A stretch of 63,015 nt of DNA, counting the filler, from Sluysia triapertura (taxonomy: Eukaryota), in the NCBI GenBank assembly GCA_046118255.1. It is 5 parts of 5 records of this genome, joined end to end, with 100 filler letters (N's around TTAATTAATTAA, not from the genome) between each part and the next. Parts side by side here need not be neighbours in the genome. Positions count along the whole stretch, not along the records: positions 49,419 to 63,015 come from JBJNIA010030276.1; 4 more parts are not named here. One strand, written 5' to 3'. This document shows positions 1,463 through 56,654 of this stretch, one piece after another. Under the pieces are notes generated by a model. The model made no database searches and had not been told where the DNA came from. It saw nothing but the letters and a program-made list of their open reading frames with translations. The translations under genes were made by a program, and so were the position numbers. Numbering within the stretch: position 1 is the stretch's first letter; each line of letters starts with the position of its first letter.

Positions 1463-1463
<1 letters not shown>

Positions 1464-3300: not shown

Positions 3301-3490
3301 TGTTAGTTTGTCATCACAACCCTATAAAATGACTTAAAATTATTTAAAATCATTTAAAAATCAATTAAAATCATATATAATGCTTTAAAACTGTTTATAA
3401 ATCTAGAAAATCACTTAAAAGAAAATTATTTTTCGAAAAAAGAAAATTCGCTTCTAAAAATAGAATGTTCTAGAATATAAAATAGCATCG
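3301..3490 (+). repeat. LTR-like dispersed repeat family A, 5' part (TGTTAG end, HSE, TATA)
   Basis: Starts TGTTAG..ATCACAACCCT, then GCTTCTAAAAATAGAATGTTCTAGAA-TATAAAATAGCATC. Homologous to 32560-32700(+), 37272-37464(-) and 56097-56320(-). Confidence 0.75.
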
Positions 3491-13253: not shown

Positions 13254-13353
13254 NNNNNNNNNNNNNNNNNNNNNNNNNNNNNNNNNNNNNNNNNNNNTTA
13301 ATTAATTAANNNNNNNNNNNNNNNNNNNNNNNNNNNNNNNNNNNNNNNNNNNN
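13254..13353. other. Artificial contig spacer 44N-TTAATTAATTAA-44N (also 25799-25898, 37172-37271, 49319-49418)
   Basis: Identical 100-nt structure four times; the 12-mer has stop codons in all six frames. Confidence 0.97.
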
Positions 13354-20903: not shown

Positions 20904-21240
20904 CCATTTCTTGATCACTTTGTGTATTACGTGGTTCTGATTTATCAATGGAAGATTGCGAATTATTATAAAAGCTATTTGTTAGACTAGCACTAGAACT
21001 ACCAACATCAGAATCAACCGTTGTAAATGGTTGTGGCATTTCTCGGAAGAATTCAGACATTTGACTAGCATTACGCCATAAATCATTGTCTTCTTTACGA
21101 CTAGTCACTGGATAAAATAAAATGTTACTCACTGCCTGGATTAATTCAAATTGTACAACACATTTTACTAATAATGTAGCAAAAGTTTGAAGTCGATTTT
21201 CTGATTGAGTAGAGATAGAAGATACTTCAGTTTTTGTTTC
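20904..21240 (-). CDS. Next internal exon of the BIG1/BIG2 Arf-GEF gene
   Basis: Acceptor acacag|GAA is phase 0, compatible with the upstream exon. Translates ETKTEV..FATLLVKCVVQFELIQAVSNILFYPVTSRKED..DQEM, matching BIG FAALLIKCVVQLELIQ..NIVFFPATSKKED..DQGM. Donor G|GTTAGA. Confidence 0.93.
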
Positions 21241-23477: not shown

Positions 23478-23707
23478 TTGATTATGCTTTCCAGGAGTAT
23501 TCGAAGAATTAGGTTTCCATGTGAATAACTGATCTGGTCTTGTCAATTTAAATACATCTTCAAGCAATGTAACTGTTTTTTTCCAATTATCCAAGTCGAA
23601 TTTAGCACCATTAGATAATACTAATGTTTCTATGCAACTTGTACCAGAACGTGCTAACTGCTCGAAGTCTTGTAGACAACACCATTTTAGTTTATTAAGC
23701 AAATCAT
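23478..23707 (-). CDS. Internal exon of a brefeldin A-inhibited Arf-GEF (BIG1/BIG2, ARFGEF1/2, Sec7 family), C-terminal region
   Basis: Translates DLLNKLKWCCLQDFEQLARSGTSCIETLVLSNGAKFDLDNWKKT..DVFKLTRPDQLFTWKP, matching the BIG motif WCxxQDxEQLARSGTxC..NGxKF. Acceptor AG at 23709-23708; donor CAA|GTTTGT, phase 0. Confidence 0.93.
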
Positions 23708-26610: not shown

Positions 26611-27299
26611 ATTTAAATAATTTAAAATTTCTGTTTCAGGCTTTTGTTTTTTCTTCTAAAATCGGTATTCAACTAAATGAATATAGTAATTCGCTGAATG
26701 CACTTATGCACTTTCTAAATCAATAATTAATAATTAATAATTGTTTCTTCTATTGAATTATGTCTATCTTTAAACTGGCTCAATTTCGATAATCCTGCTG
26801 AATTTTCTGCTATTAATGTTGAAGTCTGAGTTGCTGTTTTAACTTCTTTGCCAACTGGAACAGTTTCCACAATCGCCACTAACACTACAATCCCGTTGAA
26901 ATTCAATCCTTTTCAAGTTATATTTGTCATGAAACAATTTCAAAGACAAACTTGAAGTCAGATTGCTACTTAATGATGAAGTTGAAGTAGTTCTTGTTTC
27001 AGGTGTTCTTTTTTTGTTTTCAACCTTGCACTAATGATTAATTTATGTACTAATAATTTGATTAATTTTCTTAATTTTTATCTTGTATTTCTAAGAAGAC
27101 GAAGTAGAAGATAGAAAATTTCTATTAAATTCATCTGATATGACATTGTTTAATTTGGATTCATTCTGAAAATTTTGCACAGACTTACTTAGATATGTTT
27201 GAAGAGATATGTTATTTGTGTTCCGATTGTTGTATATAATTTGTTGCATTGAGTTGAAGTTTGATTAAGAATTTGTTTACTTTTAATTTTTGAGGTAAT

Positions 27300-27472
27300 T
27301 GTTAGACTCCAATAAATTGACTGGTCTGAAATCGAACTTTGGGCATTTCGCTTCACAACTGTGCACTTCGATTCTCTGACTACTGAGATATCAGCTCGTC
27401 TAAAAATTTTGTTTTATTACAGTCAATTGCACTATCATTATTCTATGGCATTTTAGGTCTGTACCCCATACA
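27300..27472 (-). mobile_element. Degenerate full-length copy of the tRNA-derived repeat
   Basis: Reverse complement reads TGTATGGGGTACAGACCTAAAATG..TTAGACGAGCTGATATCTCAGTAGTCAGAG..GTTCGATTTC..GAGTCTAACA. Confidence 0.75.
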
Positions 27473-30400
27473 CTACAGAAATGAGCATTATGATACTTCC
27501 TGAAACGAATGAAATAATTTCATTTAAGGAACTTTCAAGATTGCAGAAAGATCATCAATATTATAATCTGTGACACTGTCTTTAGCTTTTTTGCAATTCA
27601 ACTCATGTTAATGTTCATGTTCAACTATGATAAACATTGATTATTATGTGATAGCCGTCTTAAAGAAGTTATGCACGAACTCAACCTTAAAATTCTTTTT
27701 ATAACTAATTTTATTTTTAATTTTAAAATTATAGACTATTTTAGTATTTTAATACGAGTAGTAATTCCTAAACTTATTGTTATCGCTATATAGGTTAGAT
27801 TCTTTCATGTTTTAGTAATAGATTTCGCGAGATCTGGGAAACAATCTGTCATTTTAATAAATAAAAATGCATAAAGTTCAGATTGATATTTAAAAAAATT
27901 ATTATATTAATTAAATCTCTTATTAACGAGATGTAAGGCAGTATGCTTACTGTAATGTTTCATCAAGACTTTGATCGATATCCGTAGCTCAGCCTTGGAT
28001 AGTCGTAGAAATTTGTATTGCAACACATCTAATTAATAATCAACTGTTGGGATTGTCCAACGGTGTGAGAAACAGATAAAACTAGAAAATAAAGGAGGAA
28101 CTTATACAAATTGATGAATTTAACATTATAAACATTGTCTAAATAAGAATCATGAAAATAAAAACATCTATAATAAAGTTAACAGCTAAAGAATATCTTA
28201 ATATTCCATAAGGAAGCTTGAAAAGGACACGGAAAACTTTTGAAGGAATTAAGGTTCCTTTGTATTTGTGAGTTTTTAGATTATTTAAAATTTTATTAAC
28301 CTTTAAGTATTATTGTAACCCTGATAAGCATCTAAGGTCTTCGAGTAATTTTATAAAGTATTTAATATTTTTAAAATAGTTGAGAAATAAAATCGTTGTT
28401 ATTGGTATTAAGAATAAGTTTAGTATAGTAATAATTAATATGAAGAAGTAGAAAGAGGAATCAGAGAGGTGAAGGTTAAAACATCTAGAGCCTACTGAAT
28501 GCCTTATAAATTACTAAATGGCTTCAGAACCTCAATAAAACCTTTAGACATAAAATAAGATTAAGTCTAAAAATAGATTAATTAATTAAAATTTTAATTA
28601 ACCTAATTAAGAAAAAGTACATTTTTATGAATAACTTTTGAATGCGGAGTGCTGTGTTGAATTTGAAACTGTGTATGTATTTGTTTTGAAAATACTTTTC
28701 CATGAAGGTATGATTTGACCGAGTTCACGCAAGAAAAGCCTTAATATTGAGCAAAGTTTAATTAATTTTTAATTATGAAATGTTGAATTTGTTATACTTA
28801 GAGTGATGCACATATAATGAATGGAATATGAGATGATTGCTATGAAAAGGAGAATCTAAAAGTGCCTTCAAAATGTTTGTAGAATGGTTCGTTGGAGAAT
28901 AAGAACCTTAAAACATTTTTCATTAGAAAATTGGGTGCGAAAAATCGAAAATCAATTAAATTCGAAAAAAGTGAAATTAAATTCATTATTTTTATGTCTA
29001 TTAACAATATTGTTGATTTCATTTTAATGTGAGAAGTAATTTATGCAAAAATAGATAAACTAGAGTAAAAAAAAGTTATGGTTGATAATAAATCAAATTT
29101 CTATGTTTTGTATCCATGAAGTTTGACAGATCATACTTGTGCAATTGTGAAATTTGTTATTATCGGTCTAATTCTCAAAGATGTTTTGATGATTTCTTTG
29201 AGAGACTGTTTGATTGTGAGACTGCGGATTGATTGGATGATGAGAATTTTAAAATTTTACAAAAAAATCGCACAACACAAAAATTTGCAGAATTCAATTA
29301 GAAGATCCATCTTNNNNNNNNNNNNNNNNNNNNNNNNNNNNNNNNNNNNNNNNNNNNNNNNNNNNNNNNNNNNNNNNNNNNNNNNNNNNNNNNNNNNNNN
29401 NNNNNNNNNNNNNNNNNNNNNNNNNNNNNNNNNNNNNNNNNNNNNNNNNNNNNNNNNNNNNNNNNNNNNAATTAGTCTTATGGAAGGCATCCAGCCCAAT
29501 TTATTTTTAAAATATTTGAATTAATTATTTTATTTTAACGATTTTTAGATAACTTCGTGAGAGAAACTCTGCTCAAAATATTTTAAGTTTATTTGATTTT
29601 TAGCTACTGTAAAATAATTTTGTGGAAGACACTCTGGCAAATTTATTTTTAAAATATTTAAGCATTAAACTTTTATGCATTGAATATTACTATTTTAAAC
29701 TTTCTAGATATTGATATTTTTAGTGTATGTTCGTCCCCCTGGTTTCTTTAGACAGATAGTTATATCTTTGATACTATTATAAACGTTATTGTTAATCTCA
29801 TCATTTTAGTCATTTTTAGTATTATTTAGTGGAGATTTATAATAATAATTTGTATTAGTTTTTTGTTTAACTCTTAAATTATTGTGTTGTTCTTATTGAT
29901 TTGATTTTCAAAAACTTAATTTTGGGGTAAATAATTATAATTATCAAAATAAGAGAATTGTTGATAAAAATCTAAAAAAATCTATTATTTGTTGCAAATA
30001 GTTTATAAATAGTTTATAACATATGACTTTGATGAGGGTGTTCCCGTTTTCAAAAAGTTTGTAACAGCACGCAACCGTTAAAGTAAGTGTCGCAGTTATT
30101 ATTATGAAAGTATGTTAAGTTTTGAAATGTTGTGTCCCGTGACATTTATTTTATTTTATATATGTTATTTACTGATTTTTAATAAATTTATTAGGTTGGG
30201 TTGAATTCTGTTTAAAATTTTTTTTATGAAGGTTATGTTTCTAGATTGAATTTACCATATTTATTTAATGCAACTTGTAAGTGTGCGTAAATAATTTTTT
30301 TCTTACTAATTATATTTAAATTTGATAATTTCTAATTATATTTCATTAATATCTTGATCTATTCTATCAAAATCAGCGGACATGGCTAAGAGCACCATCA

Positions 30401-32559
30401 AAACTCTTTAAAATATCATAATTTCATCTGAAGGTTATGATTACACTGTTCTTTGAATTTGTAGTAAATATTATTTGTTTTTTAAATATTATTTAAATGT
30501 TACAATAATGCCTTTTTCACATATGACTAAAAATTTATGATCGAATTCTACTAATTTTTAATATGAGTTTAGATTGATAGTGTAATTTGCACATTATTTT
30601 ATAAATCTGATATCATTATTATTAATGATAACTTGTTCGCCTTTCATTGCTATTATGCCAGTTTAAAAAGAAGATTAAGGTTAATTTAAAACACAATACC
30701 TAGGAAATTTAATAGACATCAGTTTCTTTCAATTTTGTGGTTGTATCAAATGAATTTTAGGTAGTTTAATTATATTATATTTCAAATTTTAAATCTCTGA
30801 GGATGCGATCTCCCGCTTTCCTTTTAAACCCAAAGTACAAAACAATAAAATCATAAATAACAAAGGATGAAAAACCAAAATTCATAAAATAGCATAAGTA
30901 ATAAAAAATATTTATTGACAATGTTCAGTAACACCGAAAAGTTTCCGTATAATGTCATTTCGAATTTTTAATATTCTTTTAAAGCCAAATAGGATTTGTT
31001 GGCATCATAAAACTTTTTTTATAAACTTTAGATTTTAGATTGGAATTCTTTATAATTTAAATTATAATTTATTAAAGTGTGTTTTTCTCGTACATATATT
31101 TCATACAATGTTCGAGAATCTTACTGATTGTTATTCGAATTCATAAATGCCACGGGGTTTTTATTTATTCTTTTTATACTAGTATCGGACTCACTAATGT
31201 ATTTGGTACGCTCGTTGATTGTTTCAAGTAATTAAGTTCTTTCGGAATGTATACCTTGGATTACGAGAATTAGTCAGTTATTGCATTGTTTGAGATTCTC
31301 TTTACTTGACTTATTATTGTCCGAAAGCCTGTAATAATATAATATTCATACGAATTCAAATTTTTAATAAAAATATTTACAATTTTATGGAATCACTAGT
31401 CTGTTTTATGAAGTTCTATGACTTAGTAAGAGAGCAACAATTTATTTATTTTTGAAACAGCGACGAAATATATGAACTGCTATTACTTCATAAGATTTTA
31501 TGTGTTAAATTTTAAAATATTAAAAATATAAGTAATAAAACTTAACCTAAAATTTTAATCTAATAATACAATATTATATTGTTACATATTAAATAATATT
31601 AATCAATATAAAATTTGTCTATTTTTATAACATTTGTAATTTTTTTTGATTTGATTTTTACATCCTGTGAATCTGTCATTTTTACTAATGAATTAAGATA
31701 AGAAACATTAGACAAATTTGTTTATTTCTTTTAATATATCTTAATCAAATAAAGATAAATATATAGGTATTTTGTTGGTTTGAGTTAACAGAAGAAACTA
31801 GTATAATATATGCGGTTTAATTCAATCTTTCAGACATTTTATCACGTTGTGGATGAAAAGATTTAGTTGTTAATATATTAATTTTTAAGATTTCAGTCAA
31901 TAAATTCAAATAAGTTATTGATAATTTTATTATGAGCATCACAACGGAGTATTATTTTATCAAGAAAACTTTAGCTACAGTTTCTGCTATATGATTGGCA
32001 GAATTATTATCTCTACAATTATTATCAGATCTGAATATATTGTCTTTGATTTCAAAGGAATATCTGTTTGTACTTCTAATCTACCTCTTATTAAGTCTTA
32101 TTCTATGTTTGATTAATAATCATGATAGCGTTTTCTTTTTGATCGAAACATCCGTAATGAACTCTTGTCATATTGGAATAAGAGTTGTTTGTAACTAACA
32201 TACGATTGTGTTTATTAGTAAAATATAAAGCATTATTTTCAAATTTTTAAGTGATTAGTTAAATTGTTTAACGGAATGATATCTTGATTTGTAAATTTAA
32301 CAATTAGATTTATTATTTCATCAGCTTTGTGAATATGAAGTATACTTTCTTATTGCATTTAGATTTTATTAAATTATGAAAATTCTTTATGATAGGTTGT
32401 AACGTTCATGTATATTCTAATGCTCATTAAGAGATCATTTTATTGAAATTGATATTTGATGTGTAATTGTTCTCGCTATTAGATTTCTTATATATTAAAG
32501 TATGTAATCTGCGATAAGCATATAACTTTCTCTAGGCATAATCATGGAGCCATAGAATA

Positions 32560-33330
32560 AATTTCCAAAAAGGAAATGAAATTTCGAAAAAAGAAAACTC
32601 ACTTCTAAAAATAGAATAGAAGCTCTTGAGTGTTCTAGAACATCCATCGATTCATAAATAAACTAGCATCAGTACAATCATAAGCGCCATTTTTTATTTT
32701 CTACAGTGGTTTTCTAAGCGTTTGTCACAAAATTCACTCAATTCAATTTTGTTTACAATTAAATCTTAGTTACGATTTAATCTTGGTTAAAAATGGATAA
32801 TTATTATTAAATATCTTTGGAAGCAATTTTTATTCGAATCAATTCATGATTGTCGTAAGTTATTTTAGTTAAGGAGATACTAATTTATCTAAAATAGCAT
32901 CCTCAAATCAATGTAAATTTATTTTTCAAATGTATATTAAGTTACCCGACATATTGAGGGATAAAATCTACTTTGTTATAAAAATACAATTAAAGACCCT
33001 CGTGGTTTAATTGAAAATTTTAATTTTTCTATTCACTTTTACTTACTTTATTTTATCTCTTGTAACATTACTTTTAAGAACATCTTTGTAAATTTTAATT
33101 TTTGTAATTTTTAATAATAACATTTTTACTACAGATAAGTGAAAAATTTATTAAATTATTAAGAAATTAGATTTAAGACTCGCTAAGAAACAATACTTAG
33201 AAATAAACTTAGAAATTTCATTTTTAAGTTACAGATAAATTGTAAGTTTAGATTTGATAACATATAGTTATAGGAACGCTTAGTGTAACCGGACCCTGCT
33301 CAAAAAAATTTTGCCGCAGGTTAAGTGTTA
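32560..33330 (+). repeat. LTR-like dispersed repeat family A copy
   Basis: CTTCTAAAAATAGAA..TGTTCTAGAACA..AAACTAGCATC..CGCCATTT, and about 620 bp later the shared motif TGTAACCGGACCCTGCT..TTGCCGCAGGTTAA. Confidence 0.7.
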
Positions 33331-35336
33331 GAAAAATTGTCTAGAAAAAAATTTAATGTCTTCATCCATATCTGAAAAAACTTTCAAGAATAAAGTTTAC
33401 AGTTTCTATATTACAAAATTAATTAAGAGCATTTTGTTTGGAAGGTTCTTTTTGGTCGTAAAGTTCGAAAGGTTTTATTAAATTATTAAATATAAATTAT
33501 TGAAAGTGTCATAGTCGAAGTTATAACACGTTATAGCAATGTTATGTTAAGAATTTCAAATAAATATTTACTAGAACTAAAATATAGCACTTAAGATGCT
33601 TTAAACGTTCAAAACTGACTTAAGGATTGTAGTGAAATTCACATCTACATATCAACATCGCAAACACATTTCATCTCAAATGAACATTTCTTACAGAAAT
33701 AAAATGTTAAAAAATACTCAATTCATTCAAAACATAAAAATAGTTATAGCGCATAATTATCACAACTTATGTTTATTGTTATCATGTTTTCTATCATAAT
33801 AATAATTTTCATAATGATTGCAAATTCTCGCAATACTATTAGCATTATCATATTAAACTATTAAATTCTATTTTTTTAGTTGTTTTCATAATAACTATTA
33901 TTATTGTTGTAATTACTTTAATAATTCTGCAATTTTTTTTATTATCAATGTTGTAATTGTTACTATTATCAATATTGTTGTAATTTCTTTCTCTTATTTT
34001 TTGTACGTATGTAGAATGATAGTGTCTGTAGATTTTTGTCACATACTCGTGCAATGAATACACTACCATTTCAGAAAGAACATAGAATGAAATATTTCAA
34101 AAATTTTGTTTGTGTTGGAACCATTGAAATCAACAGAATATCAATATAGATCAGTTATGCCTTGTTTTAATAAATCAGCATCAGATTAATACATAAAATT
34201 AATTCTATAAGTATTTATTTATTAGTTCTATTCGCATCTTTGCTTAATCTGATAATCATTATAATGTTCCCACTGAAAAACAATCGATTCACTGATAACC
34301 TATGGTTCTATATTTAAATTATTGACATTTCTAATTGGATTTATTTTTCATATGCTGCCTTTGAAAATAGTGAAGAGGATGATGATATTGATGATGATTT
34401 TGTACTTAACCATTGTTAATTAGTATACATAGCAATAATGGCATGTATGCCAAGAATATTATTAATTATTGTATTTTATCGTTGTCGAATTATTTACGAA
34501 TTTTTGGTATTTCACATAATATGGACTTCATATTTATAGGAATGTTAATAAAACTTGGCTGTATAAAATGAAATCTACGAATTCGTCTTCGAAAGAAACA
34601 AATAAGAACATCACGATTATTCAGAGATGGCTTTTATATTTAGTGAAATGGATATGCGAAATTTGATAATTAAAAATTGCGATGCTAAATGTATAATATC
34701 ATCAAATAATAATTTAGAAAGCCTGATACTTATCATATGGAATGAAAATGTTGAATGGTATCCTGGAATGCAGCATTAATGACATCCAATGAAGCTGACG
34801 CACATTATAAATTAACAGCTCCATTTGAAGCATATAATCAAATTTTGATAGATAAAGTTCATGAAAAACAAATATTAGGTTATAATTATTTGAAAATACT
34901 TAAAGACTTATCGAAACAATTAGAAGTGCATAATAAATAAGGATTGTTAAAGAAGAAGATTTACAACAATTCAAAATGGTTAAAATGACAAAATTTCTAT
35001 AAATCATTACCATCATAATTATATTTTATATGTAAAAGAAAATCGTTTTTATTTATGAAGAATTGTATGATTTAAGATATAATAATTAATAATAAAACTA
35101 TTGGTCAACAAAAAATCAATAATTCTTAAAATTTTGTTTGACTATTTAAATGCAATTTGCTAATGTAAGTTTCACATAAGCGTATGGAACTTTCTCTCAT
35201 AGCTATTATCACGAGAAGTACATTTAATTTCGTCAGTTTGACTTTTATTGATAAGTTTTAAGCTCGTTCTACATACAGTTATTGATGAATCAAAAATACA
35301 GTTGGCTGTACAATCAAACAGAGTTTTATTATGAAT

Positions 35337-37154: not shown

Positions 37155-37271
37155 TATTATTATTATTATTANNNNNNNNNNNNNNNNNNNNNNNNNNNNN
37201 NNNNNNNNNNNNNNNTTAATTAATTAANNNNNNNNNNNNNNNNNNNNNNNNNNNNNNNNNNNNNNNNNNNN

Positions 37272-37464
37272 ATCAGCCAATAGAAATCGATAGAATGTTC
37301 TATAACATTCTAGAAGCTTCTATTCTATTTTTAGAAGCTTATTTTCTTGGAATTTTTATTTTCTTTTTTGGAAAATAAAGTTGTTTAAAGGTATTTAAAT
37401 ATTTTTTAAGTGATTTTTAATGATGTTTTTGATAATTTTAAAGGGTTGTGAAGGCAACCTAACA
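37272..37464 (-). repeat. LTR-like dispersed repeat family A copy, truncated by a gap
   Basis: Same blocks in reverse; ends AGGGTTGTGAAGGCAACCTAACA. Confidence 0.75.
37293..37320. promoter_or_regulatory. Heat-shock element array (6 phased nGAAn units, 1 mismatch)
   Basis: GAAtgTTCtaTAAcaTTCtaGAAgcTTC next to CCAAT (37277-37281). Confidence 0.6.
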
Positions 37465-37500: not shown

Positions 37501-37913
37501 ATGAAGCTATTCCTCTGTTCAAACTCAATTCAAGGTCATGTGCAACAAGAATGTGTAATCAGCTATTGATATTCTCTGAATTTTAACTAAAAATAAAAAA
37601 TTGATTCTAGTTGCTTCAAACTAAATGTAATTTTGTAACCTATCGCGGTTATTACGTACAAACTGAACTTTCACGGACAATAATCAAACCGGTGATTCTC
37701 GGACATCGTTTAGCTGTGATTACACAAAACTTAACAATGTCTCATAAAGAAATTACGGAAATTGAAACTAATGACATTATATCGTTAAATTATTTTGCTA
37801 ATACTGGAAGAATGTATGAGTCTAAAATCGTATTTTTCACTAATATAAATACGAAATCGACTGAATTGCGAACCAACACCATTTCATATTCTAAGTCAAT
37901 CAAAATTATCTAA
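37501..37913 (+). CDS. Possible two-exon coding fragment of unknown function
   Basis: ATG at 37501 MKLFLCSNSIQGHVQQEC, a 56-nt GT..AG intron (37555-37610), in frame with the 100-codon ORF 37611-37913 of non-low-complexity composition. No recognised family. Confidence 0.3.
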
Positions 37914-38197: not shown

Positions 38198-38663
38198 CAG
38201 ATTCTTAGTACACCAACTCAATTAGTCATAGGAACTATATTAATATTCATTGAATTCATTTTAATTATCATCATTAGAAAACGCTATCCATCTTATACAG
38301 GTGCATATTATTTGGATCGTCAAAGTGCGTATTTGATATGTACTATCCCACACACATTAGCAGTATTTTTACCGATCTTATTTGATGGTGTTTTGGTATT
38401 ATTTTGTACTTGGTATGCAAGTAAAACTCGAAAATTACCGGAAATTCGTTGGTTTTACTATGTATAAAATATGTATAATATGGGTTGGATTAGTACCGAT
38501 ATGTTTTAGTATTGATTTTAAAATTATCTCAATGTCATTTGCCATTAATTTATCTGCTACTGTTGCTTTAGTATTGCTTTTTATACAGAAAATTTACATC
38601 ATTTTATTACGACCTGAAAAAATAAATCAAAAAAATCGATATTTTATTTTGGTAACATGTTAA
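38198..38663 (+). pseudogene. Metabotropic glutamate receptor (class C GPCR) TM4-TM7 fragment with a frameshift
   Basis: Frame 1: ILSTPTQLVIG..YLIC..LVLFCTWYASKTRKLPE. Frame 2: KFVGFTMYKICIIWVGLVPI..LSATVALVLLFIQKIYIILLRPEK. The conserved ICL3 NFNEA is deleted at about 38441-38447, shifting frame. Confidence 0.88.
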
Positions 38664-39099: not shown

Positions 39100-41705
39100 T
39101 AAATTTGTAAATTTAGTCATTTTTTCGTTAAAATTTCCACGTTTAAAAGGCCTTAAGCCTAGTTTAGTAATTAATAGGTTTAACATTTCATTAATGTTTT
39201 CCAAATTTCATACTTCGGATAATTTTTAAATAATTAAAAAATAAACAAAATTAATTATGATTTATTAATTTTAAAATATAAAAAGTCCTCTCCACATTAA
39301 TATTTAAACAATAATACTCATTTTTATAATAAAAATAAAACAACAACAAATTATTGTAATAAAAAATAAAAACAATATTAATAATGAAAAATTAATGAAA
39401 TTAATTTGTCATATATTTAATTACTTTAATTTTATTTTAGATTAGTTTATATTGATCGTGTAAAGAAAGTTGTTGATCTTGTGAAAGTGTAATAATGATT
39501 ATGTATTAGTGTTTGTAAATTGAATGGTTTTGGGTTTTGACTCATCACAATTTCAGAATAATTTTATAATCATTGCTGTGGTTTTGTATTTTTAAATTAA
39601 CAACGATAATTATAAAACACAATTAAATGAATCTTAATCTCATTATATTATTACCTTTGGCACAAAACTTATGACAGAGAAATCAAATAATTGTTAACTC
39701 AATATAAATTAGTCTTTTTATAACATTTATTTATAATTCACTATAAATCAATCTTAAAATACTTCAAAATACAAATTAGTTATAATACTCAATCCAAGGA
39801 GTTACACAACATATATTAAAGTAACAATAACTAACCAATAAAACTGAAGACCCAACTAACCATGAATATGTTGGTTTAAAGACGAAGAATTATAAGATTC
39901 AATCAGTGTTTGCCATTACTCTATTGAAATAGTAATAGCTATTGAAATGATTTCTCGTGTGTTCAATGATAGCAAAATGTAATTCTTAATCAAATTTGTA
40001 GAAAATTTCACATTAAAACCAACTCATTTTATTGTACAATCAGCTGCAGTCCATAAGTAACATGTGACACATTTCAACGGAATTTAATGGAAAGCCATCT
40101 ATTATAATTTTAAATACAACTATAACCAAAGTAAGCATTTATGAACGTGTCTGTTATACATATCGGAAATACATTTGATTATTTGCTTATTTTGAAAATT
40201 TTGTTAAAACTATTTTCGTTTTATTGATCTTATAAGGAACACTCAAGCAGATTGCTTAATAAGTTTAGTTTCGATTCGGCCTGAATATTTTATTTTACAT
40301 CTAATACTACTTTTACATAAGTATTATTAACAAATATGTATATATTATATTTTATTTTTGTAAGAAGATTAAAAGTTAACGTTAATATTTTGTAAATGAA
40401 ATTTATCTAATTTTGTTTTTACGTAGAATGTGACAGTTTTAATTAAGAATTGCATTTCGTAACAAGTTATTGTGGAGTTGCTATCACAATTATTTCCCGG
40501 CAATTACAATCAGTTAGTTCTGCCATTTTTGAAAATGTATGTGGTATGTCACTGTCATAGATAGTTTTAACGCATCCAGACAAATTTAAGGAATCGCTTC
40601 CTTTTTATCTAAATTTTTGAATTTCTAATTTCTTTTTAACGTCTTTAAACGTGCCGTTGATCTTACAAAATTATTTCCACGTAATTAGTTAAATGAGTTT
40701 CGTCTAGTGTATAAAGCTGTCGTTTTCTATCATAATTTTAATATCTTGTTCTTTGTAAAACTTTCTTTAAAATACTATTCCCTATTCTTCATCGTATTTT
40801 CTCCGCATTCTCCTAAAAACTTTCCCGATCTTCTCCCTAAGATTTTTTCAAGCACATCACTCTTCCAAGATCACCATGAAATATCCAATCATCCATACGT
40901 ACTGTATTTCATTAATATGTACATCTTTTTAGAACATCCGACAACTTATCTTGGACCTAATTGGCACCAATAATGAAAAATAACAAGCGAAATTTCTTAG
41001 TGATATTAAAAATTGTACTTTGGCCGAAGCAGATATCGGTAGGAAAGAAATTGCTGCATTTTCATAAAAATAGTTTTGAAAATTTAATACTGAGATTTGT
41101 CTATTTCGTGGAGAAGACGCCGTAGTTTTTGTAAAATTTTATCAATTCCAGATACTAAGTTTGTTCATAAAGTTTTCAATCTTAGACTTTAATTTTGTCA
41201 AGTCTACATTCATAGTGAGATCGAACGAAGTCCTAAGATTACTTTATATGAAACACGACAACAGATTTAGAGTTTGTATTTAGATTTTAACACAATTGTT
41301 AAAACATTACAAAATCAGCATTAGGAAGTCACTCTGCGGAAGATCTGTATGCAGTGAGCATGATTACGTCAAATGATTGTCAATATTTCTTCCTCAACCA
41401 ATAATAGTTTGACTCCAAGTTCGTTCACATAATCTTACTTATTCAAATTAGTTAGCATAGTCTACAGTGATCTATATTCCATCAGCTCTTTGATATCAAT
41501 TAATCGAAGTAAATCCAGGGTATCCTAAATAACGTTTGCAATTGATATTTTGTCCATTAAGACTTTTACAACACTACCGAAACAACAACATATTCCTTCC
41601 CGAGCTTGCTATGATGCACAACACAAAATATTGTCACTCTGTTTGGATAATATAGTGTAATGATATATAATATAATGATAATATAGGATAATGATAGTAT
41701 AAAAT

Positions 41706-42015
41706 TGTTAGACGGCGCTGATAGCTATGTAGTCAGAGCATCGAACTGTATAGGTGTGAAGCAAAAGGTCCCGGGTTCGATTCCCGGTCAGTCCATTTTA
41801 TGAAGTCTAACATTTGGGAGCCATTCTGATGTTGAGATAAATCATAATTGATTTAGATGTTGTGGTACAAGCCTAAAGTGACATAAAATAATGATAATAT
41901 AATTGACGACAATAGAATAAAATTGTTGGACGGGACTGATAGCTCAGTGCATAGATGAGAAGCGAGAGGTCCTGGGTTCGTTTCCCAGTCATTCTCCAAT
42001 TAATGAAGTCTAACA
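41706..42015 (+). mobile_element. Tandem pair of tRNA-derived repeat units (SINE or tRNA-bearing TRIM)
   Basis: A-box-like TAGCT(C)A and B-box GGTTCGATTCC with T-stem CCGGG/CCCGG; acceptor-like GGACTGA/TCAGTCC; no canonical anticodon arm. Each unit is bracketed by TGTTRGAC..GTCTAACA. Confidence 0.8.
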
Positions 42016-43073
42016 ATTCCAACACAAATCGTTTCAATCGACATTACACAAGAACTCAGTCACTTTTACCAATTCAATTCTTACACTTTCGACCATCCTG
42101 CATCACAAGATTCAAAAACATACAACCCGTACGTTTCGAAAACATCACAATTATAAAATGCGTCACTTAGTTCGCCAATTTATTACTGTTATTTTTATTG
42201 TTAAAATTCCGAAAGTCCATTGTATGATTTAATTAAATTAAGGTTAAAAACACAGGAAAACTTTCCGTATAAAAGAAAACATTTGCAATAGTTTGAATGT
42301 ACTAGAAATAAATGTTAATTAAATTTCATTTTCACATATATTAAGTATTAACTTAGAACAAATCGTAATTGATTAACGATTCTGAAAGTTGTACTTTAAT
42401 CCCGCATAATATCCTCCATAATGACCATGAAGTTGGATAGTTTTCCATAACATGTATTCCGAACATTACATTTCAAAATTCTTTTCTAATTTCCTGTCTG
42501 AAATCTTTTTTCGTATACTTAATTTTTGATTTACTATTGATGTCAATTATCATCAACTTTTCATGATGAATTTTCAATTGGTCAATCAGCGTGATGTTTC
42601 AGGATGATTTTAATGTAAGACATATTCCTAAAATAAACCCTCATTTTTATTGGGATACCTAATAAAAGTCAATGAATGGCTTGCAACGGTGTTCAATGCA
42701 TTCTTTAGAACAGGCGCCCCCATTTCAACATATTTATTTCTGGCGCTCCCAACTTAATAAAAAATCATAATGCCACTATAAAAAAACTTCATAAATAAAA
42801 TAAACAGTTCTAATTCTTCATCAAAAATAAAGAAATTTAAAAAATTTTAATTTTAATTCTTTATATCAAAAATGCAATATTATATCTGTTAAAAAATAGC
42901 AGAATATCAAATAGCATAACATCTCTAGTGCACATGCATAATTGTTTTATGAATATTTGTAAGTATATTTGCTTTGAAATTTTATTCTTGATGGTTGTTC
43001 TACATCCAGAACGCAAATTATGGAATTAGATGAATTTAGAATTTGTGTGTTTAGAAATTTCATAATTCATAAT

Positions 43074-43741: not shown

Positions 43742-44003
43742 CTAAATAAGTTAATAAAGCACTAAGTTCTACGTAGGTACTAAAAATGAAATATTTAACA
43801 TTATTTTACTACAAACCAGCATAGTTCTTCAAGGATTGCATCGACACTGACAGTGTAAGGATAACCCTTTGGAAAAGTTTCTCCTTGCTTGGTAAATCGC
43901 GAATTAATTCACATAAAAACGAATAACGTCAGCCAATTCGTAATCATCGATGCATCGTTCTGCATTTGAATTCTGAGTTAATTATTTGACGCAGCATTCG
44001 ATG

Positions 44004-44091
44004 TGTTGGGCTACAGGGCTAAAGTGTCATTTAGAACAATGATAGTATAATTGACTATAATAGAACAAAATTGTTAGACGGGGCTGATAGC
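44004..44091 (+). mobile_element. 3'-truncated copy of the tRNA-derived repeat
   Basis: TGTTGGGCTACAGGGCTAAAGTGTCAT..AAAATTGTTAGACGGGGCTGATAGC, collinear with 41858-41943. Confidence 0.7.
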
Positions 44092-44582
44092 GCCCTGGAC
44101 AGATTCAACAAACTGCAGACTAACGTTTAAAGAATGAACAACGAATAAGTATCAACATCAAAATGAGTCATACTATGTCGTACATCTTTTGAACATTTAA
44201 CAATGGTTTGTCTTCTTTGTTCTTTGAAATTCTTCAAATTTATTCGATTGAAAATCAAGTTTTATCTTGCAGCTTCTTTTTAAGATCTACATCATTAAAT
44301 ATTGGATGATCAAGACATATTCCATGGAATAGTCTATGTTATACGTACTACTTGCTTCGTAGCACAGCTGACAATTACCGTATACATATTTTCACTTTGA
44401 TTCTTCATGGGAAATGGTCATTGTGCAAATTCTTCAATTTTATTATTTAAATTTAATGAAAAGATATTTTAAATAATTACATTTCTTATAAAAAGACTTA
44501 AAATCAATGATAATAGTGATAATAATGATAAAAATAAGGGGCATTAGGAAAACACGAACTTTTATTATAAAAATTGGAAAAT

Positions 44583-45000: not shown

Positions 45001-45456
45001 TACTGCTGCTTATGAATGACAATGAAAATTATTAAATAAATGTAGTATATAAAAATCGTGTTTTTTAATTTTTATTAATTCATTTGTCAAAGAAAAGTTA
45101 GTATTGTCTAATTTTTAAAATAAGTTCGTCTTTTCCAATTTTCCCTAAATTTATTTACACACTTAAATTAAATGTTTAGTAGATTTTATATTGATTTTAT
45201 ACACATAACAATTTAATGTACATAATTTTAAAATTGTAAAATCTGTAAACAAAATTGCTTTCGACAATTGGAATTTAAGTCCAATTACGTAAAATATTAT
45301 TCAGATTCCATTTCAAGGAATCATCGTAAAATCATTCAAATATTATTATTATTAATTTTTTGATAAAATCTTATAAAATCCTTGAGTATCGAACTTACCT
45401 CCAGACAGTTAAAGATAAAGGATTTCTTTTAGCATCATCCAACACTCTTATTCTCA

Positions 45457-45506
45457 AATCCAACGGCTGGCCCTAACCCGTAAGTCCAGTACGTTGGTGA
45501 ACTTAC
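45457..45506 (-). ncRNA. Candidate structured RNA motif in a dispersed repeat (other copies 3545-3597 +, 49990-50040 +, 59501-59551 -)
   Basis: Conserved pairings with G-U wobbles and covariation across four copies; see findings. Confidence 0.5.
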
Positions 45507-45707
45507 GTTAAATTCTTGATTTATTCTATTACTATTACTTTAAATAAATTCTCACAGTATTTTCAATTCCAAATTTAATAATTAATAATCTATAGTTAAT
45601 TTTTTATTGTATAACTAATTCTACTAAGTGTTTCTGCTGTAAGTATTATCAGTTTCATTTGTATATTAATTAATTTTCTTTTGCATTACTTGTTTGGCCA
45701 TATAATA

Positions 45708-46918
45708 CAGGGTTTTAACCCACATTTTGAATTTCTAAACCCTCATTTTGAATTTTTTAATCAAAGAATAAAAAGAGAAATTTTAATGTTACAAACACAC
45801 TAAACCATAAAATTTAAAATAATCAATATCATTACCAAATTTAATTAACCATCATTAATGGGCTCTTTAGCCATTGATATTAAAATATGAGACGTCAAGT
45901 GTCGATAAAAACCACAACAATCGCTCGGAGTTATAATATAATTTCCTTGAGCAATGTAATTAAACAGTTCTTCTTCGTTTTTCGGTTTTTTCTGTCTAAC
46001 ATAATTTTTCCATTTCAAAAAGGCAATTTTGATAAGATTCAAAAACGGATAATACGGTAGTAAGTACATAATTTTAAATCCTTTATTTTCGATTAAATTC
46101 TGAATCGCTGGAGACTTATGGAAGCAAACATTACCCACCATGATAACAGAATTATTTCACCATTCTTAAGTTAGATCAGTAACTATGTTTTCTTCAAAAC
46201 TTGACATATTAAACGATTAGTCTGTGTGCACATTTGACTATACCATTTTTAGAAATCGCGCAACACAACGATATATTTCTTGGTTTAAAAAACAACCATA
46301 GAGTGCTCACATTGAAACATTAAAACCAACTTCATCGATAAAAATTATGTTAAATTCATCAATGCATATTTAGCTCTCCCTTCAATATTCGCTGCATCAT
46401 TTCTACGTTCAGGTTCTATGGAAACTCGTTTAAAGCCAAATTCAAATTCCTTTATATATTTTGATATTGTGACAATAGAAACATTCAAGTTATATGACCT
46501 TCAATGTTTTTCCTTTAGAAATTCTAAAGTAATACAACAATCTTCTTCTGTTTCGGTTCTGATAAAATCGATATGAAATTGGCTTAGCATTTTCTGTCGT
46601 TTCTTTTCAAATCGACCTTCTTTTGAAATATATTAATTATGGAGTAAACTGTTGGTAGTTTTACGTCATACGTACGTTATGTCAAAATGCTTCAATGTTT
46701 TCGTATTTCATTACAAATATATGCTAATTTAGAGAAATCAAACTTTCTTTAATATCAATTTTTTCATTTTATAAATATATATATAAATGTTTTCATTTTA
46801 TAAAAAGTATTTCATTACAAATATATGCTGATTTAGAGAAATCAAACTTTCTTTAATATCAATTTTTTCATTTTATAAAATTTGGGTTTAGAAATTCAAA
46901 ATGTGGGTTAAAACCCTG
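45708..46918 (-). mobile_element. Tc1/IS630-like DNA transposon (DD34E spacing) with decayed transposase
   Basis: Perfect 35-bp TIRs CAGGGTTTTAACCCACATTTTGAATTTCTAAACCC (45708-45742 / 46884-46918) with TA on both sides. Minus-strand motifs IIFIDEVGFNV, xNVCFHKS and LLPYYPFLNLIK (cf. PPYSPFLNPIE); second D and the E are mutated, 34 aa apart. Confidence 0.95.
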
Positions 46919-47766
46919 TAATTCATTTATACATTTATATTCATTTGTGCGTTGGTTTATAATTGTTTGTTTTTATATTATTCATTTCTTCATTTCTATT
47001 TTAATAAAATAATAAATTTTTCCAGCACTGCTCTCTGACACGTAATCTTGTCTACTTAGTTATTTATGACGAGTTTCAATCTCTGTTATTTGATTACGTT
47101 TTTCTTTTATTTCTTTTACTTCTACTTCAATGAATTTACTGAGATATTCTTTTACATTTATTAAGAATTTTGTTTTGTTTTACTTCTTATTTTAAGATTA
47201 TTAAGTTATTTTCCAATACATTTTTATTATTATTATTATTATTTATAATCGATTATTAATGTTTCGAAATACAAATAAAGGTACCTAAAAATAAAATTCT
47301 ACTTCCACTTTAATAGAATTATTTCATACTTTTTCATAATATACATGTGTTTAATTATTGTTTAAAATATTTATTTAAAAACAATCATAATTAACTAATC
47401 ACAAAATTTCGTTTTATCTTTAGAGTATAAATTTAATATAAATAATCCAAGCAATTAAATTAGTGGCTAAACACCTAAATGACTAATAATCTATTTATAA
47501 AACCAAAAATTATACATAATTTCCAGTACAGACTTTTCATTAAAATATGTAAAAATAAATACGAAATCAAAAACTAAAATTAACCAATCACTTATTGTAT
47601 ATTAATTTGTGTATATTATATATACTACATAGTACAACGTCCAACATATGTAAGAAAGATCTTAATTAATGATAGGTGACTTTTAATAATATGCATTTAT
47701 AATTTATTATTATAAAATATATATGATTTATTCTAGTATATATTAAGGTCCTTGGTTGATTTAATA

Positions 47767-49233
47767 ATGGCCCCATCAAATTCATGTATATATTATCCTA
47801 ACGATAAAATTAATTGGCACAAAGATCTTTCTGGTGCTTATAGATTCTACATTACGCCAATATTTGCTATATTCGGTATATTAGGAAATGCATTAGTAAT
47901 AGTATTATTTTTACTAGAACAAAAGAAATCTCGGTTCTCAATTTATTGTATATCTATTTCGGCGTGTCATATTATAATTTTGGTAACAAATTCTATAATG
48001 GATGATTTCATGGGAAATGGACTTAAATATTGGCGAAATGGATCTCAGATTAAATTCGATCAATTTTCGTACTTAATGTGCATAATCATGGAATCAGTAC
48101 CAAACTGTATGTATACTGTATCATCTGGTTTATTACTAATGTTTTCTTTTGATAGAATTGTAACTATTTTTAAACCGATGAGGTTTTATTCAGTTCACTA
48201 TCGAAAGGTGGCAATTTATGTTTGTATAAGTGTTGTGATTATTAGCTGTATATTAACCATACCGTTATTAGTCTCATCGGAATTGATAATAAATAATACA
48301 ACTAAATATCGTAAATGTACTGTTAATGATAAACTCAGTCTTGGTCGCAGTTCAATTTTTATTAAAGTATTTGTTACTTTTGTAATACCAACTTTCATAA
48401 TTTTAATCGTTAATGTTATTATTTGCATTCGATTATGGCAAACTTCAGTGCAAAGAAAAAAACTCTTACCGACTGATTTAAGAAATAATAGCATTGAAAT
48501 GAATCGAATATGTGGTCATCTTGCTCTTAATACTGTGTTTCTTATGTTCACTTTACCTTTAGTTATTACAATGTTATTACGACAAATTCAACCATGCAGT
48601 ACTAGATTCAAAGATCTCTCAAAATTTTTTTCATCAACTAAAGATATTGCTTATTCATTAGACTTGATTTTATATATTGTATTTTTGAAAAATTTTCGCT
48701 GGAGATTAATTCGTTATTGTGTAATGCCAATACTTACATGTTTACCGTGTTTCCGACAATCACATTTCGTACTTAATATTCAAATTCGATTAATGAAGTA
48801 CGATAGTAATTTTAGTCGTCGAAAACAGAGTGCCCTTATTAGTGGATTATCACACTGCCACAATCCGACAGTATTAAATGCACTAATGTTTCGAAATTGT
48901 TCCAGTTTGCAAAATTGTGTCGATCAGAAGTTGTGTAATACTGTAGTATCATTTAGGAGTAGTACACATAATATTGATTCCAGTCTTGCTTACCCTACAT
49001 TACATCAAAGTCGATCACCATCTTTGAAATTTAAATTAATTTCACCAGCATCATTATCTGTCACTCATACACCAACAATTAGTTCTAAAAGAATAGGTTT
49101 CCATGAAGATGAAATTGATGCTGGTGAAGACCAAGAAGATAATAATCTTTTATTGGATAATAATAATGTTATTAATCATAAACTTGATAATCACAAAAAG
49201 ATAATAAATGATAAAATTGTCAGTAAACTATGA
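47767..49233 (+). CDS. Intronless class A (rhodopsin-like) orphan peptide-type GPCR, probably of a flatworm-expanded family
   Basis: ORF-track ORF 47752-49233; first ATG at 47767. Seven hydrophobic segments: TM1 GILGN, TM3 Cys plus FSFDRIVTIFKP, ECL2 Cys (RKCTV), TM5 FVIP, TM6 FTLP, TM7 SLDLILY, helix 8 NFR, then a long Ser-rich C-tail. Confidence 0.95.
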   Translation: MAPSNSCIYYPNDKINWHKDLSGAYRFYITPIFAIFGILGNALVIVLFLLEQKKSRFSIYCISISACHIIILVTNSIMDDFMGNGLKYWRNGSQIKFDQFSYLMCIIMESVPNCMYTVSSGLLLMFSFDRIVTIFKPMRFYSVHYRKVAIYVCISVVIISCILTIPLLVSSELIINNTTKYRKCTVNDKLSLGRSSIFIKVFVTFVIPTFIILIVNVIICIRLWQTSVQRKKLLPTDLRNNSIEMNRICGHLALNTVFLMFTLPLVITMLLRQIQPCSTRFKDLSKFFSSTKDIAYSLDLILYIVFLKNFRWRLIRYCVMPILTCLPCFRQSHFVLNIQIRLMKYDSNFSRRKQSALISGLSHCHNPTVLNALMFRNCSSLQNCVDQKLCNTVVSFRSSTHNIDSSLAYPTLHQSRSPSLKFKLISPASLSVTHTPTISSKRIGFHEDEIDAGEDQEDNNLLLDNNNVINHKLDNHKKIINDKIVSKL

Positions 49234-49318: not shown

Positions 49319-49607
49319 NNNNNNNNNNNNNNNNNNNNNNNNNNNNNNNNNNNNNNNNNNNNTTAATTAATTAANNNNNNNNNNNNNNNNNNNNNNNNNN
49401 NNNNNNNNNNNNNNNNNNTATAATGTTAGCATTAGAAAAGTAAAGTTCAAATATTAAATATTTGTTTTATTTTATATTTTTAAAATTCAACAAAAAATGT
49501 TTAAAATATTAACCAATCAAAGTCCAACAATTCAAAATGATATCCAATTTCCTGATAAATTTAAATTGTATAAACATTGATTTTTATTAGAAAATTCTTA
49601 TTATTAC

Positions 49608-53703: not shown

Positions 53704-55540
53704 ATGAGCGTTATGTTTACATTAATAATACTATAATTATTATTATTTTATTACGTTTTGAAATGTTATGGCATGCTCCTTGTAATATTTTCGGATCGGC
53801 ATATAAAGTATGTGTTATGCCATGTAGAATTATTTGATACTTCATCTTAAAACTAATTAAATAAAATAAATATTTATATTTCCATAAATAATAACTAAGA
53901 TAAATTCTTCGAATTATCATAAAGAAATAACAAATAAAATTCAAATTTTCTTTACTGACTTTTCTACTGAAAGAATAATCTAAAAATAAAAAGTTGTATT
54001 TAAAATTGATATACATATTTAATGCAATATTAACTTTTTTAAAGTTATTTTATGATATCTTTAATGAAAATCTCTTTTTAAACTCTACTTTGACACTGTC
54101 TGATATGTCTATAAAAATAAGTCATAAACAAATCAAAATAAATTAACAAAAGAGTTGATAATACATACTTATTTCATACAGAACTTCAAATAATTTCTGA
54201 TTTTCTTGTTATTGTGCAATATAAAGATGCAGTTTCTTGATTAATGATTTTATTTGCATATGAATAATTTGACAATATTATTATTATTATTATTGTTATT
54301 ATTATTATTGTTGTTGTTGTTTAATCGAATAAGACGATAATTTCATGGCTAAAAGCGAAAAATTATTTAAAATGCATAAATANNNNNNNNNNNNNNNNNN
54401 NNNNNNNNNNNNNNNNNNNNNNNNNNNNNNNNNNNNNNNNNNNNNNNNNNNNNNNNNNNNNNNNNNNNNNNNNNNNNNNNNNNNNNNNNNNNNNNNNNNN
54501 NNNNNNNNNNNNNNNNNNNNTAATCGAATAAGACGATAATTTCATAGCTAAAAGCGAAAAATTATTTAAAATGCTCAAATAATATTAATATTAAATATTT
54601 ATTAATAAAACATTAAATAAATTCTAAAAAAAATATTCATTTTTATGAATGTAGTAACAATTATTCAAAAATTATACAACGTTAAACTAAATAAAACAAA
54701 ATATTACGAAATGGAACTTGATAAACAAATGATATTTTAGTTTTTACTTACCACAATTTTTAAATCAAAAATTAAATCATTATAAATTGAAATTTTTATC
54801 AGAAAACAGCGTGGCTTAATATTTAAGGTAATATTCATGATATTGTTATTATTTATTATCATTATTATTAGTATTAGTATTAGTATACAATTCCTTATAG
54901 ACCTAACATCATTTATTTAGTATAATTCATGTTGATTTTCATTATATATTTTGATTTAATGAATAACCTTGAACATTATCGTTTATTATTTCACTATTAT
55001 TTACGATTATTAGCATTTTTTTATTTTTATATGTTTCTTTTCATATTAATAATTTAGTAAATCTGTAAGAAAACCTATTTTTTTAAAATTAAATTATCAC
55101 AATAATTAATATATTATTTATTAAAATTTAAATGTTTTATTTATTAATATTAAAGGCAATATACTTTATTCATTAATAATAAAACTAAAATTATTGATAT
55201 TTTTTATTTATTACTCCAATTTAAAACATTTATTTCTTATTTTTAAATATAGTAATTGCTTACAACTATGTAAAAATAGTTTATTTAATATTATTTTAGT
55301 TGTAATTAATTTTTTCGGGTTTATTTTCGTACACATTTCTTTCGTTTATATAGGAGTTAGTTATAAAATGATTAAATTAATTTATAAATATATTTGTGGA
55401 AATTACTTCTTTACTTCTTTAAAGATGGAAGTCTATAAATGGTTTAATAAATTTAATTTTATTATTTTTCTACTAAATTCATAATTTTAATAATAAATTT
55501 TAAAATTTAATAATAATAATAATGCGGTTTTTGCATAATA

Positions 55541-56320
55541 GTAAACCTACGGCAAAATAAAATTGAGTAGGGTTCGGCTACGGTAAGCGTCTTACAACTA
55601 ATAGTTGGCACTTCTGTAGCTTATAAGTGGAAATTCGTATTACTTAACTTAATACTGCCTTAAAAATGTCACAATAAAATGAATTAACTTTATTAAATTT
55701 ATTGATTATACAAAAATTAATATTACAAATAAGACAAAAATAAAAATGGAAATAGCTTAAGACAAAAAGGTAGTTTAAGAACAAAATCCTCTTGGGATAT
55801 TTGATCAATTAATAAATAAGATTTTGAGTATAAAATTTCCCACCACTATATCGGAGTCCTTACAAAAATTTATAATAAAATTGAATTTACGTCTATTTTA
55901 AGATTCTGATTTTTTTAAAAATCAAAATCACCTTAATAAAAAAATAGTTTACCCTAGCATGGAATTGTGAAAACGGATTTGAATTCCAAAATTCGTAGAC
56001 GATCAAATGAATTGAATGACTTCAGTAAGATGGCGACGAAAAATTAACTAGCTAAAAATTAAACGACTGAAAACTTAAATGGCGATTTTCATTGTAAGAT
56101 GCTAGTTTATATACTAGTCATCATCCAATGAAAATCGATCGAATGTTCTAAAATATTTTAGAACATTCTAGAAGCTTCTCATCTATTTTTAGAAGCTTAT
56201 TTTTTATTTTAGAAAAAATAATTTCTTTTTTGGAAAATTAATACTTTTTGGTGTTTTTTGACACATAAATAATTTTAAAACATTTTGATATTTTAAAAGG
56301 TCGTGATGGCAGACCTAACA
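55541..56320 (-). repeat. LTR-like dispersed repeat family A copy
   Basis: TGTTAGGT end at 56320, HSE array 56141-56178, CCAAT 56125-56129, TATATAAA 56113-56106, 3' motif 55541-55595. Confidence 0.75.
56141..56178. promoter_or_regulatory. Heat-shock element array (8 phased nGAAn units, 2 single mismatches)
   Basis: GAAtgTTCtaAAAtaTTTtaGAAcaTTCtaGAAgcTTC. Confidence 0.6.
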
Positions 56321-56398
56321 ATTAAGTTATATTTCTAAAATATAATAAAACAGTGGAAAAGATATATAACGTGTTCCATAAGTATGTGTTGCTTAGGC

Positions 56399-56654
56399 CA
56401 GTGTTGTTCAAAAGAGATCACGAAAAATTTGTGAGGTTCGCGAGATACTTCAAAGTTATAGTAAATGAGAAGTTTAATTTTACATAATTTTTAATACAAT
56501 TATTATTTTTTTTATTGATATTATAGTAATGCAAAAAACATTCTCAACAAGATTATGTTCTAATACGTTATTATGAAATTTTTTTTTTAAAAATTTACTT
56601 TATTATTTGTATTTTAGTCCCTAGGTCGCAGCACAAAAAGTGTGAAGACCACTG
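56399..56654. mobile_element. hAT (Charlie/Buster-type) MITE
   Basis: CAGTG..CACTG termini with a perfect 8-bp TSD GCTTAGGC (56391-56398, 56655-56662) having a central TA. Confidence 0.9.

Follow-up and report, generated by a model that had tools for sequence, protein, structure and literature searches.

Transposable elements wired to the heat-shock response have been validated in few lineages, namely as ONSEN, as Helitron1_CE and as LTRs of the flatworm Macrostomum (PMC12801592). In Macrostomum lignano, according to the available part of that report, six LTR families carry canonical heat-shock elements (HSEs); four of them are induced > 250-fold and two are not induced, and mutation of the HSE abolishes the heat response. 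These families have 4–20 copies, only two solo LTRs lie < 2 kb from mildly induced genes, and the HSE-bearing Ty3/Mdg4 families belong to the Mag (Mlig-id115), CsRN1 (id36, id55) and Gmr1 (id38) types (PMC12801592). In Caenorhabditis elegans, Helitron1_CE and its derivatives hold 61% of HSEs (11 527 of 18 766), in tandem arrays, and HSF-1 binding has been shown (PMC6927752). A literature search that covered few subscription papers found no report of HSE-driven transposons in flatworms other than Macrostomum, and the available part of a planarian genome paper makes no mention of HSF (PMC11410931).

Here we describe a repeat of the flatworm Sluysia triapertura (GenBank assembly GCA_046118255.1), which is ∼800 bp long, very common and larger than first described. 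The window, that is, the whole stretch of DNA that was analysed, has 63 015 nucleotides and 23.7% G+C. Its gaps (13254–13353, 25799–25898, 37172–37271 and 49319–49418) each consist of a 12-base stop linker between two runs of 44 N, and three of them adjoin (ATT)n tracts. Our best explanation, to which we give a probability of roughly 0.6, makes the repeat a solo LTR from an abundant, diversified group of LTR retrotransposons; its U3 would contain a heat-shock promoter and its parent would be HSF-driven. No published description of the family was found by title or abstract start, in a search of few subscription papers with Repbase outside its scope; the family may already be catalogued.

Extent, copies and abundance of the repeat

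Sequence comparison within the window identified four promoter-bearing copies that are homologous to one another, and five pieces of the repeat (Table 1). A first-pass annotation had ended the repeat of the 56-kb copy at 56097, a limit that has to be abandoned because homology extends to ∼55523. It had also given all four copies a TGTTAG terminus, which holds for three (3301+, 37464− and 56320−); the first base of the 32.5-kb copy lies ∼80–100 bp inside the element. The 3′ block, of ∼100 bp, occurs four times in the window (5243+, 10945+, 33250+ and 55620−), and in the three promoter copies that can be traced it always lies downstream on the same strand, at ∼620, 690 and 1830 bp (chance 0.020, 0.022 and 0.057). 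The intervening middles are collinear by anchored global alignment, with z-values of 2.9, 2.5 and 3.8, and with 0, 2 and 0 of 300 genomic null windows scoring as high; when aligned locally, they did not reach significance (scores of 33 and 27, against a genomic null mean of 27 and maximum of 46).

Table 1. Positions of the repeat copies and of the motifs of the 56-kb copy in the window.
Feature	Position	Strand	Remarks
Most complete copy, 798 bp; probable solo LTR	55523–56320	−	Contig-depth drops, joints, collinearity with other copies
Copy 2, both ends present (TGTTAGT...TACAACA)	3301–5340	+	Exact ATAT duplication 3297–3300/5341–5344; 3-unit HSE 3463–3475
Copy 3, TGTTAGG end	37272–37464	−	6-unit HSE 37293–37320; CCAAT box 37275–37283; remainder hidden by gap 37172–37271
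Copy 4, 5′-truncated	32559–33336	+	Degenerate HSE ∼32619–32645, no CCAAT, TATA-like and YY1-like motifs, middle, 3′ block 33250–33336, no terminal CA
Piece 5, 3′ block alone	10945–11036	+	No homology found upstream of block
5′ terminus TGTTAGG	56314–56320	−	Matches LTR integrase motif TGTTRNR
Short 5′ hairpin	56298–56316	−	5-bp stem matched in 37-kb copy, broken in 3.3-kb copy; z −2.5, −1.2, +0.3
HSE array, 8 alternating units, 6 perfect	56141–56178	.	Perfect 28-bp palindrome 56141–56168
ATCGAT motif	56134–56139	.	Kept in 3/4 copies
CCAAT box, inverted relative to promoter	56125–56129	+	
TATA box TATATAAA	56106–56113	−	
CGCCATTT, YY1/initiator-like	56077–56084	−	
Second YY1-like motif CGCCATCTT	56027–56035	−	
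Long imperfect palindrome, TATA box in loop	56083–56137	.	56-kb copy only; 56083–56180 folds with z −10.7
AT-rich middle	55630–56075	−	Diverged yet collinear among three copies; global alignment
Conserved 3′ block	55523–55625	−	5-bp stem-loop 55546–55571; ends AACCGCA; flanks TAAT/TTAT (3/4 match)

We then used contigs of one public run (X1), aligned to 55350–56550 at 80% likeness (6350 records). Their depth falls from 5594 (56293–56333) to 22 (56334–56374) at the 5′ edge, and from 24 835 (55514–55554) to 159 (55473–55513) at the 3′ edge, with values of 31–284 farther out; by this measure, the flanks of the 56-kb copy are single-copy. Within the element, the summed depth is 3600–5600 over the first 70 bp, 335 000–403 000 over the promoter core (56088–56210), 430–3500 over the middle and 25 000–113 000 at 55514–55636. 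Contig joints from 55598 to 55923, and from 55884 and 55907 to 56099, tie the middle to both conserved blocks. The depth profile, the joints and the recurrent collinear 3′ block therefore define a unit of ∼800 bp, of which the window contains five pieces. Set against a single-copy contig depth of 10–21, the depth of the core suggests ∼10⁴ related promoter cores, a rough figure in that summed contig depth is not copy number; the copy density in the window, four per 62 kb, is of the same order.

The promoter-core motif had no match in a metagenome contig collection and none in a viral one. Matches to the 3′ motif in these collections (6 + 1) were rejected as chance, the downstream context being absent in all; six lie in DNA of 53–67% G+C and one at 37%. 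Inside the 3301–5340 copy there is ∼1.27 kb of extra sequence (∼3495–4760, +), with a 72-bp tandem repeat at 4498–4702, in which we found no long frame and of which there is no second copy within the window. At 56399–56654, 80 bp from the LTR-like copy, lies a short element whose ends read CAGTG and which has an exact duplication of 8 bp, GCTTAGGC (56391 and 56655); we take this element to be a hAT-type MITE, and X1 depth is high at 56457–56538.

Other features of the window are of several kinds. A dispersed family (41667–42018, 27297–27473 and 44003–44104) has a tRNA-like part at 41715–41795 (32 bits), the only match at gathering score in an Rfam search, and is probably a tRNA-derived SINE. 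A DDE_3 transposase fragment of the Tc1/mariner type (45845–46156, −) has repeats nearby (45455–45749 and 46703–46920). A single-exon rhodopsin-type receptor (47737–49233, +) has as its best named relative a Schistosoma allatostatin/somatostatin-like receptor; of its four matches, the named Schistosoma relatives are 39–40% identical and two unnamed proteins 62–64%. A BIG1/BIG2 ARF exchange factor is represented by two exons (21013–21246 and 23505–23708, −), whose one named match is from a monogenean. The relatives of the receptor and of these exons mark the DNA as that of a flatworm, and the base composition hints at a free-living triclad, which is no more than a guess.

An mGlu1/5-like metabotropic glutamate receptor transmembrane segment lies at 38200–38660 (+) in two frames, with a shift near 38433–38443; no other part of the receptor could be mapped in the window, and we regard the segment as a pseudogene fragment or an assembly collapse. 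The candidate coding fragment at 37501, which had been noted as a neighbour of one repeat copy, is unsupported as a gene. Neither it nor the frame at 37611–37910 has a Pfam or PDB match of note, 14 of 14 mGluR-type proteins tried, out of 150 listed, align only to 38279–38657 and none to the fragment, and the adjacent repeat copy points away from it.

Heat-shock-element arrays and promoter motifs

From the TG end, the minus strand of the 56-kb copy presents a 30-bp block, an AT-rich tract, the HSE array, ATCGAT, the inverted CCAAT, TATA, CGCCATTT and the second YY1-like motif. By motif only, HSE, CCAAT, TATA and a YY1/initiator-like site form, in this order, a Pol II promoter layout in the putative U3. 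The 30-bp block is 81–87% identical among three copies; the promoter core is 72–81% identical between copies, against 56% for the adjoining AT-rich part in the one pair compared. We take the ATCGAT motif to be DRE-like.

A run of at least three alternating pentamers is a binding site for HSF trimers. The nGAAn arrays are present exactly where the first-pass annotation had placed them: eight units in the 56-kb copy, six in the 37-kb copy (five perfect), three, all perfect, in the 3.3-kb copy, and a degenerate array with no perfect triplet in the 32.5-kb copy, which has also lost its CCAAT. Four of the five perfect HSE triplets in the window fall within repeat copies, and none of 100 dinucleotide shuffles reached five (mean 0.85, maximum 4); the sole triplet outside the repeat (1284–1296, +) compares with one expected by chance. 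Arrays with at least four perfect units number two in the window and were absent from 15 of 15 block shuffles. Three of the four promoter-bearing copies have a perfect triplet, which is followed by TATA in two and by the gap, which would hide it, in the third.

The array of the 56-kb copy lies 28–65 bp upstream of TATA, and the inverted CCAAT and the TATA box do follow it within 35 bp, as had been claimed. The sequence ATAAAnTAGCATC occurs three times in the window, each time within a copy of the element. The heat-shock promoter architecture attributed to the repeat is complete in the 56-kb copy; the other three lack a complete visible set, the 3.3-kb copy having lost the CCAAT segment and the 37464 copy running into a gap after its HSE and CCAAT. 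The CCAAT at 37275 has a better NF-Y-type context, and this stronger context accounts for 36% of X1 depth; in 56 X1 contigs the sequence goes on past a CCAAT box in the direction of TATA. The family does not lack phased GAA/TTC units, the outcome that would have refuted the earlier description: among the 40 X1 differences listed, with 22 more beyond these, two are inside the array, one in 97% of depth and the other in 18%, and both yield the canonical pentamer. Because of these differences and the stronger CCAAT context, the family is nearer to an ideal heat-shock promoter than the 56-kb copy itself.

The predicted transcription start lies at ∼56080, at a distance of 33 bp from the TATA box. 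CGCCATTT begins 29 bp past the start of TATA and its A is at 33 bp, a usual TATA-to-start distance. The homologous site in the 32-kb copy, at 32685, is an exact CGCCATNTT, a motif that we take to be YY1-like and that has three exact matches in the window, two of them in the element, with 0.5 expected. AATAAA, a candidate poly(A) signal in the putative R region, occurs at 55703 and 55694, and is too common to mark a poly(A) site (551 window matches). The long palindrome and the neighbouring 28-bp palindrome, which are found in the 56-kb copy only, may be a record of palindrome-perfecting mutations during decay.

The arrays are embedded in a periodic sequence. The AT-rich tract after the 30-bp block has a periodicity of 10 and 20 bp, and autocorrelation across the 5′ 160 bp peaks at 10 and 19–21 bp in all four copies; the arrays of the 56-kb and 37-kb copies differ in length by exactly 10 bp, with the phase kept. 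This periodicity, the gain and loss of units among copies seen at X1 joints, and the richness of the 56-kb copy in palindromes would all be expected if the array, whether in a solo LTR or in another transposon, were a slippage by-product of a 10/20-bp periodic, palindrome-rich tract, with no HSF-dependent function. We consider this unlikely, as only the TATA-proximal units, 12–35 bp from CCAAT and TATA, are canonical, and related X1 contigs are nearer to the HSE consensus than the 56-kb copy. An HSE is itself palindromic with a period of 10 bp, and slippage origin and function are therefore not mutually exclusive.

Ends and class of the element

LTRs have the end consensus TGTTRNR...YNYAACA (PMC3601003, available part). 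All three intact 5′ ends of the repeat read TGTTAGG or TGTTAGT, starting with TG and matching TGTTRNR at 7/7 positions in two copies and 6/7 in the third. The single-copy flank contig of the 56-kb copy stops at 56291, 30 bases inside the element, which would place the branch for 31-letter words at 56320/56321 and hence the start at TG. At the other end, TACAACA (5334–5340) matches YNYAACA at 7/7 positions and is followed by ATAT, identical to the left flank. The 11-mer pattern of a TACAACA-type end plus ATAT has five occurrences on both window strands, or 4e-4 per 10 positions, this end having been chosen after inspection. The target-site duplication is exact in the 3301–5340 copy, where ATAT nevertheless consists of A and T alone in a genome of 24% G+C, and matches at 3/4 positions in the 56-kb copy (TAAT/TTAT), with nulls of 0.007 and 0.076. 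A terminal CA is present in two of four 3′ ends, at positions 3 nt apart; the 55523 end, AACCGCA, shares only the CA with the consensus, and the 33-kb and 11-kb ends have none.

No paired LTR, primer-binding site or polypurine tract was found beside the five window pieces, as is expected of solo LTRs, and this has no bearing on the parent. None of 76 frames of at least 48 codons in 1–12.5, 30.5–38.2 and 53.5–59.5 kb, low-complexity and gap-containing frames being left out, encodes a gag/pol or transposon domain. The earlier suggestion of an abundant animal retroelement is borne out as to the flatworm host, the TG start, the near-consensus end pair and exact 4-bp duplication of one copy, and the high core depth, and not as to gag-pol or paired LTRs. 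We judge the element to be probably a solo LTR, and its parent most likely of the Ty3/Gypsy type. Four-bp duplications are described for flatworm CsRn1-type Gypsy elements in the available part of PMC2582038; the published CsRN1 end motif, TGTGGYG, does not match the ends of the window repeat, though the 4-bp duplication would fit a CsRn1-like Gypsy clade.

The same ends and folds can be read as those of a non-autonomous Helentron (HINE or DINE-1-like, HLE2), a rolling-circle element that would insert at T-rich sites with no duplication and carry the heat-shock promoter of a parent transposase, as in the Caenorhabditis Helitrons; we judge this quite unlikely. Like the DINE-1 and HINE Helentrons, the repeat is a high-copy non-coding unit with conserved end blocks, a variable middle, a 5′ hairpin and a 3′ stem-loop (PMC4067079 and PMC11417382, available parts). 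The hairpin is nested in the first 23 bp in two of three copies, and the stem-loop lies ∼16 nt before the end of homology (8–35 bp from the end in Helentrons), with 94% of cells paired in four sequences against at most 50% when slid. Copy number is very high, and the window contains a 3′-only fragment and a 5′-truncated copy. A T precedes the TG in three of three copies; the right flank begins with T in one of two complete copies, and the flank contig ending at 56291 would imply another copy without a T before TG. Covariation in the 3′ stem did not go beyond that of shuffles (195/500; four sequences). DINE-1 and HINE elements need subterminal inverted repeats of 11–15 near-identical bases and a T–T insertion without duplication (same sources), whereas here the candidate repeat, 42–52 bp from the 3′ end and inside the range of PMC4067079, matches at 7 or 8 of 10 bases, the fraction of random windows that score at least as high being 0.08–0.98 over 12 pairs, and a Helentron would not be expected to leave the exact ATAT duplication that follows TACAACA.

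That duplication would also fit a Ginger2-like or unclassified cut-and-paste transposon, non-autonomous and with TG...CA ends, which makes AT-rich duplications of 4 bp and had captured a host heat-shock promoter. Ginger2 has ends that follow TGTNR, makes 4-bp duplications and prefers RTATAY targets, but Ginger elements have terminal inverted repeats of 40–270 bp (PMC2836005, available part). Such long repeats are absent from both complete copies, whose best end-to-end match, 9–10 of 12, is not above the null (0.28), and we regard this origin as very unlikely.

Several further candidates were rejected. A SINE- or LINE-type retroposed origin was dismissed, given that the promoter is situated upstream of the predicted start and that three copies have their 5′ end in common. 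A canonical Helitron (HLE1; 5′ TC, 3′ CTRR, insertion between A and T) does not fit, as neither orientation starts with TC, and CTAG is found near one of four 3′ ends with no T after it. The layouts of hammerhead and twister ribozymes, judged by eye, do not fit either. On the 33-kb end, Rfam gave two matches at chance level, with E = 2.2 and E = 4.9; the latter, to freshwater-1 at 33284–33346 (+), scores 14.5 bits, where the gathering score is 72, and has an 11-base run in common. A Crypton was raised as a candidate since one copy has a second TGTTAG close to its 3′ end, and was set aside; animal Cryptons are reported to have no terminal repeats (PMC3212892, available part).

Proposed mechanism and comparison with known systems

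If the repeat is the solo LTR of an HSF-driven retrotransposon, its first 240 bp would be a U3 promoter, in which the last 6–8 units of a 10/20-bp periodic tract form the canonical HSE array, followed by CCAAT, TATA and a YY1/initiator-like start from which transcription would run inward. HSF trimers activated by heat would, in the parent, occupy the array and so increase genomic RNA, and with it transposition under stress; both HSF binding and heat induction are predicted here from the motifs. LTR–LTR recombination would have left single LTRs genome-wide, and these would have spread the promoter module, the window copies now decaying.

With four promoter-bearing copies in 63 kb, and four of the five perfect triplets in them, this repeat may account for most of the genome's HSEs, in which case HSE-based target prediction would be confounded in S. 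triapertura, and it could be tested simply whether solo LTRs rewire the heat-shock response or titrate it. A wider proposition, which we regard as doubtful, is that one LTR group has seeded some ten thousand strong HSE–CCAAT–TATA promoters, holds most canonical HSEs, and then either rewires the heat-shock and wound-stress response, by way of solo-LTR promoters and enhancers, or acts as a genome-wide HSF sink. If true, flatworms would have, in LTR form, a parallel to the Helitrons of Caenorhabditis, far above the 4–20-copy Macrostomum families.

ONSEN had been named as the precedent, and the HSE-bearing LTR families of M. lignano are closer (PMC12801592). As HSE-driven LTRs have already been demonstrated there, the novelty of the present repeat is lowered, and lies in its host and, above all, its apparent scale; with its 6–8 unit array, it would be another flatworm instance of the same design. 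ONSEN, a Ty1/Copia element of the Brassicaceae, has HSEs in its LTR promoter, as here, but is a plant Copia element for which direct HSF interaction has been shown (PMC12801592, available part). Helitron1_CE resembles the present repeat, if the scale of the latter holds, in that one transposon supplies most HSEs, here four of five window triplets (PMC6927752, available part); it is a rolling-circle element, whereas the window repeat has LTR-like ends and, by motif, a single array of 6–8 units in each copy, together with CCAAT and TATA. The Macrostomum LTRs share with it a flatworm host and a canonical HSE upstream of TATA in an LTR, the LTR class being our own assignment here, and three window copies pass the canonical-HSE regular expression given in the available part of that report (PMC12801592). 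They differ in having internal genes and a measured induction, whereas the repeat of S. triapertura is represented by solo pieces only, with apparently thousands of related cores.
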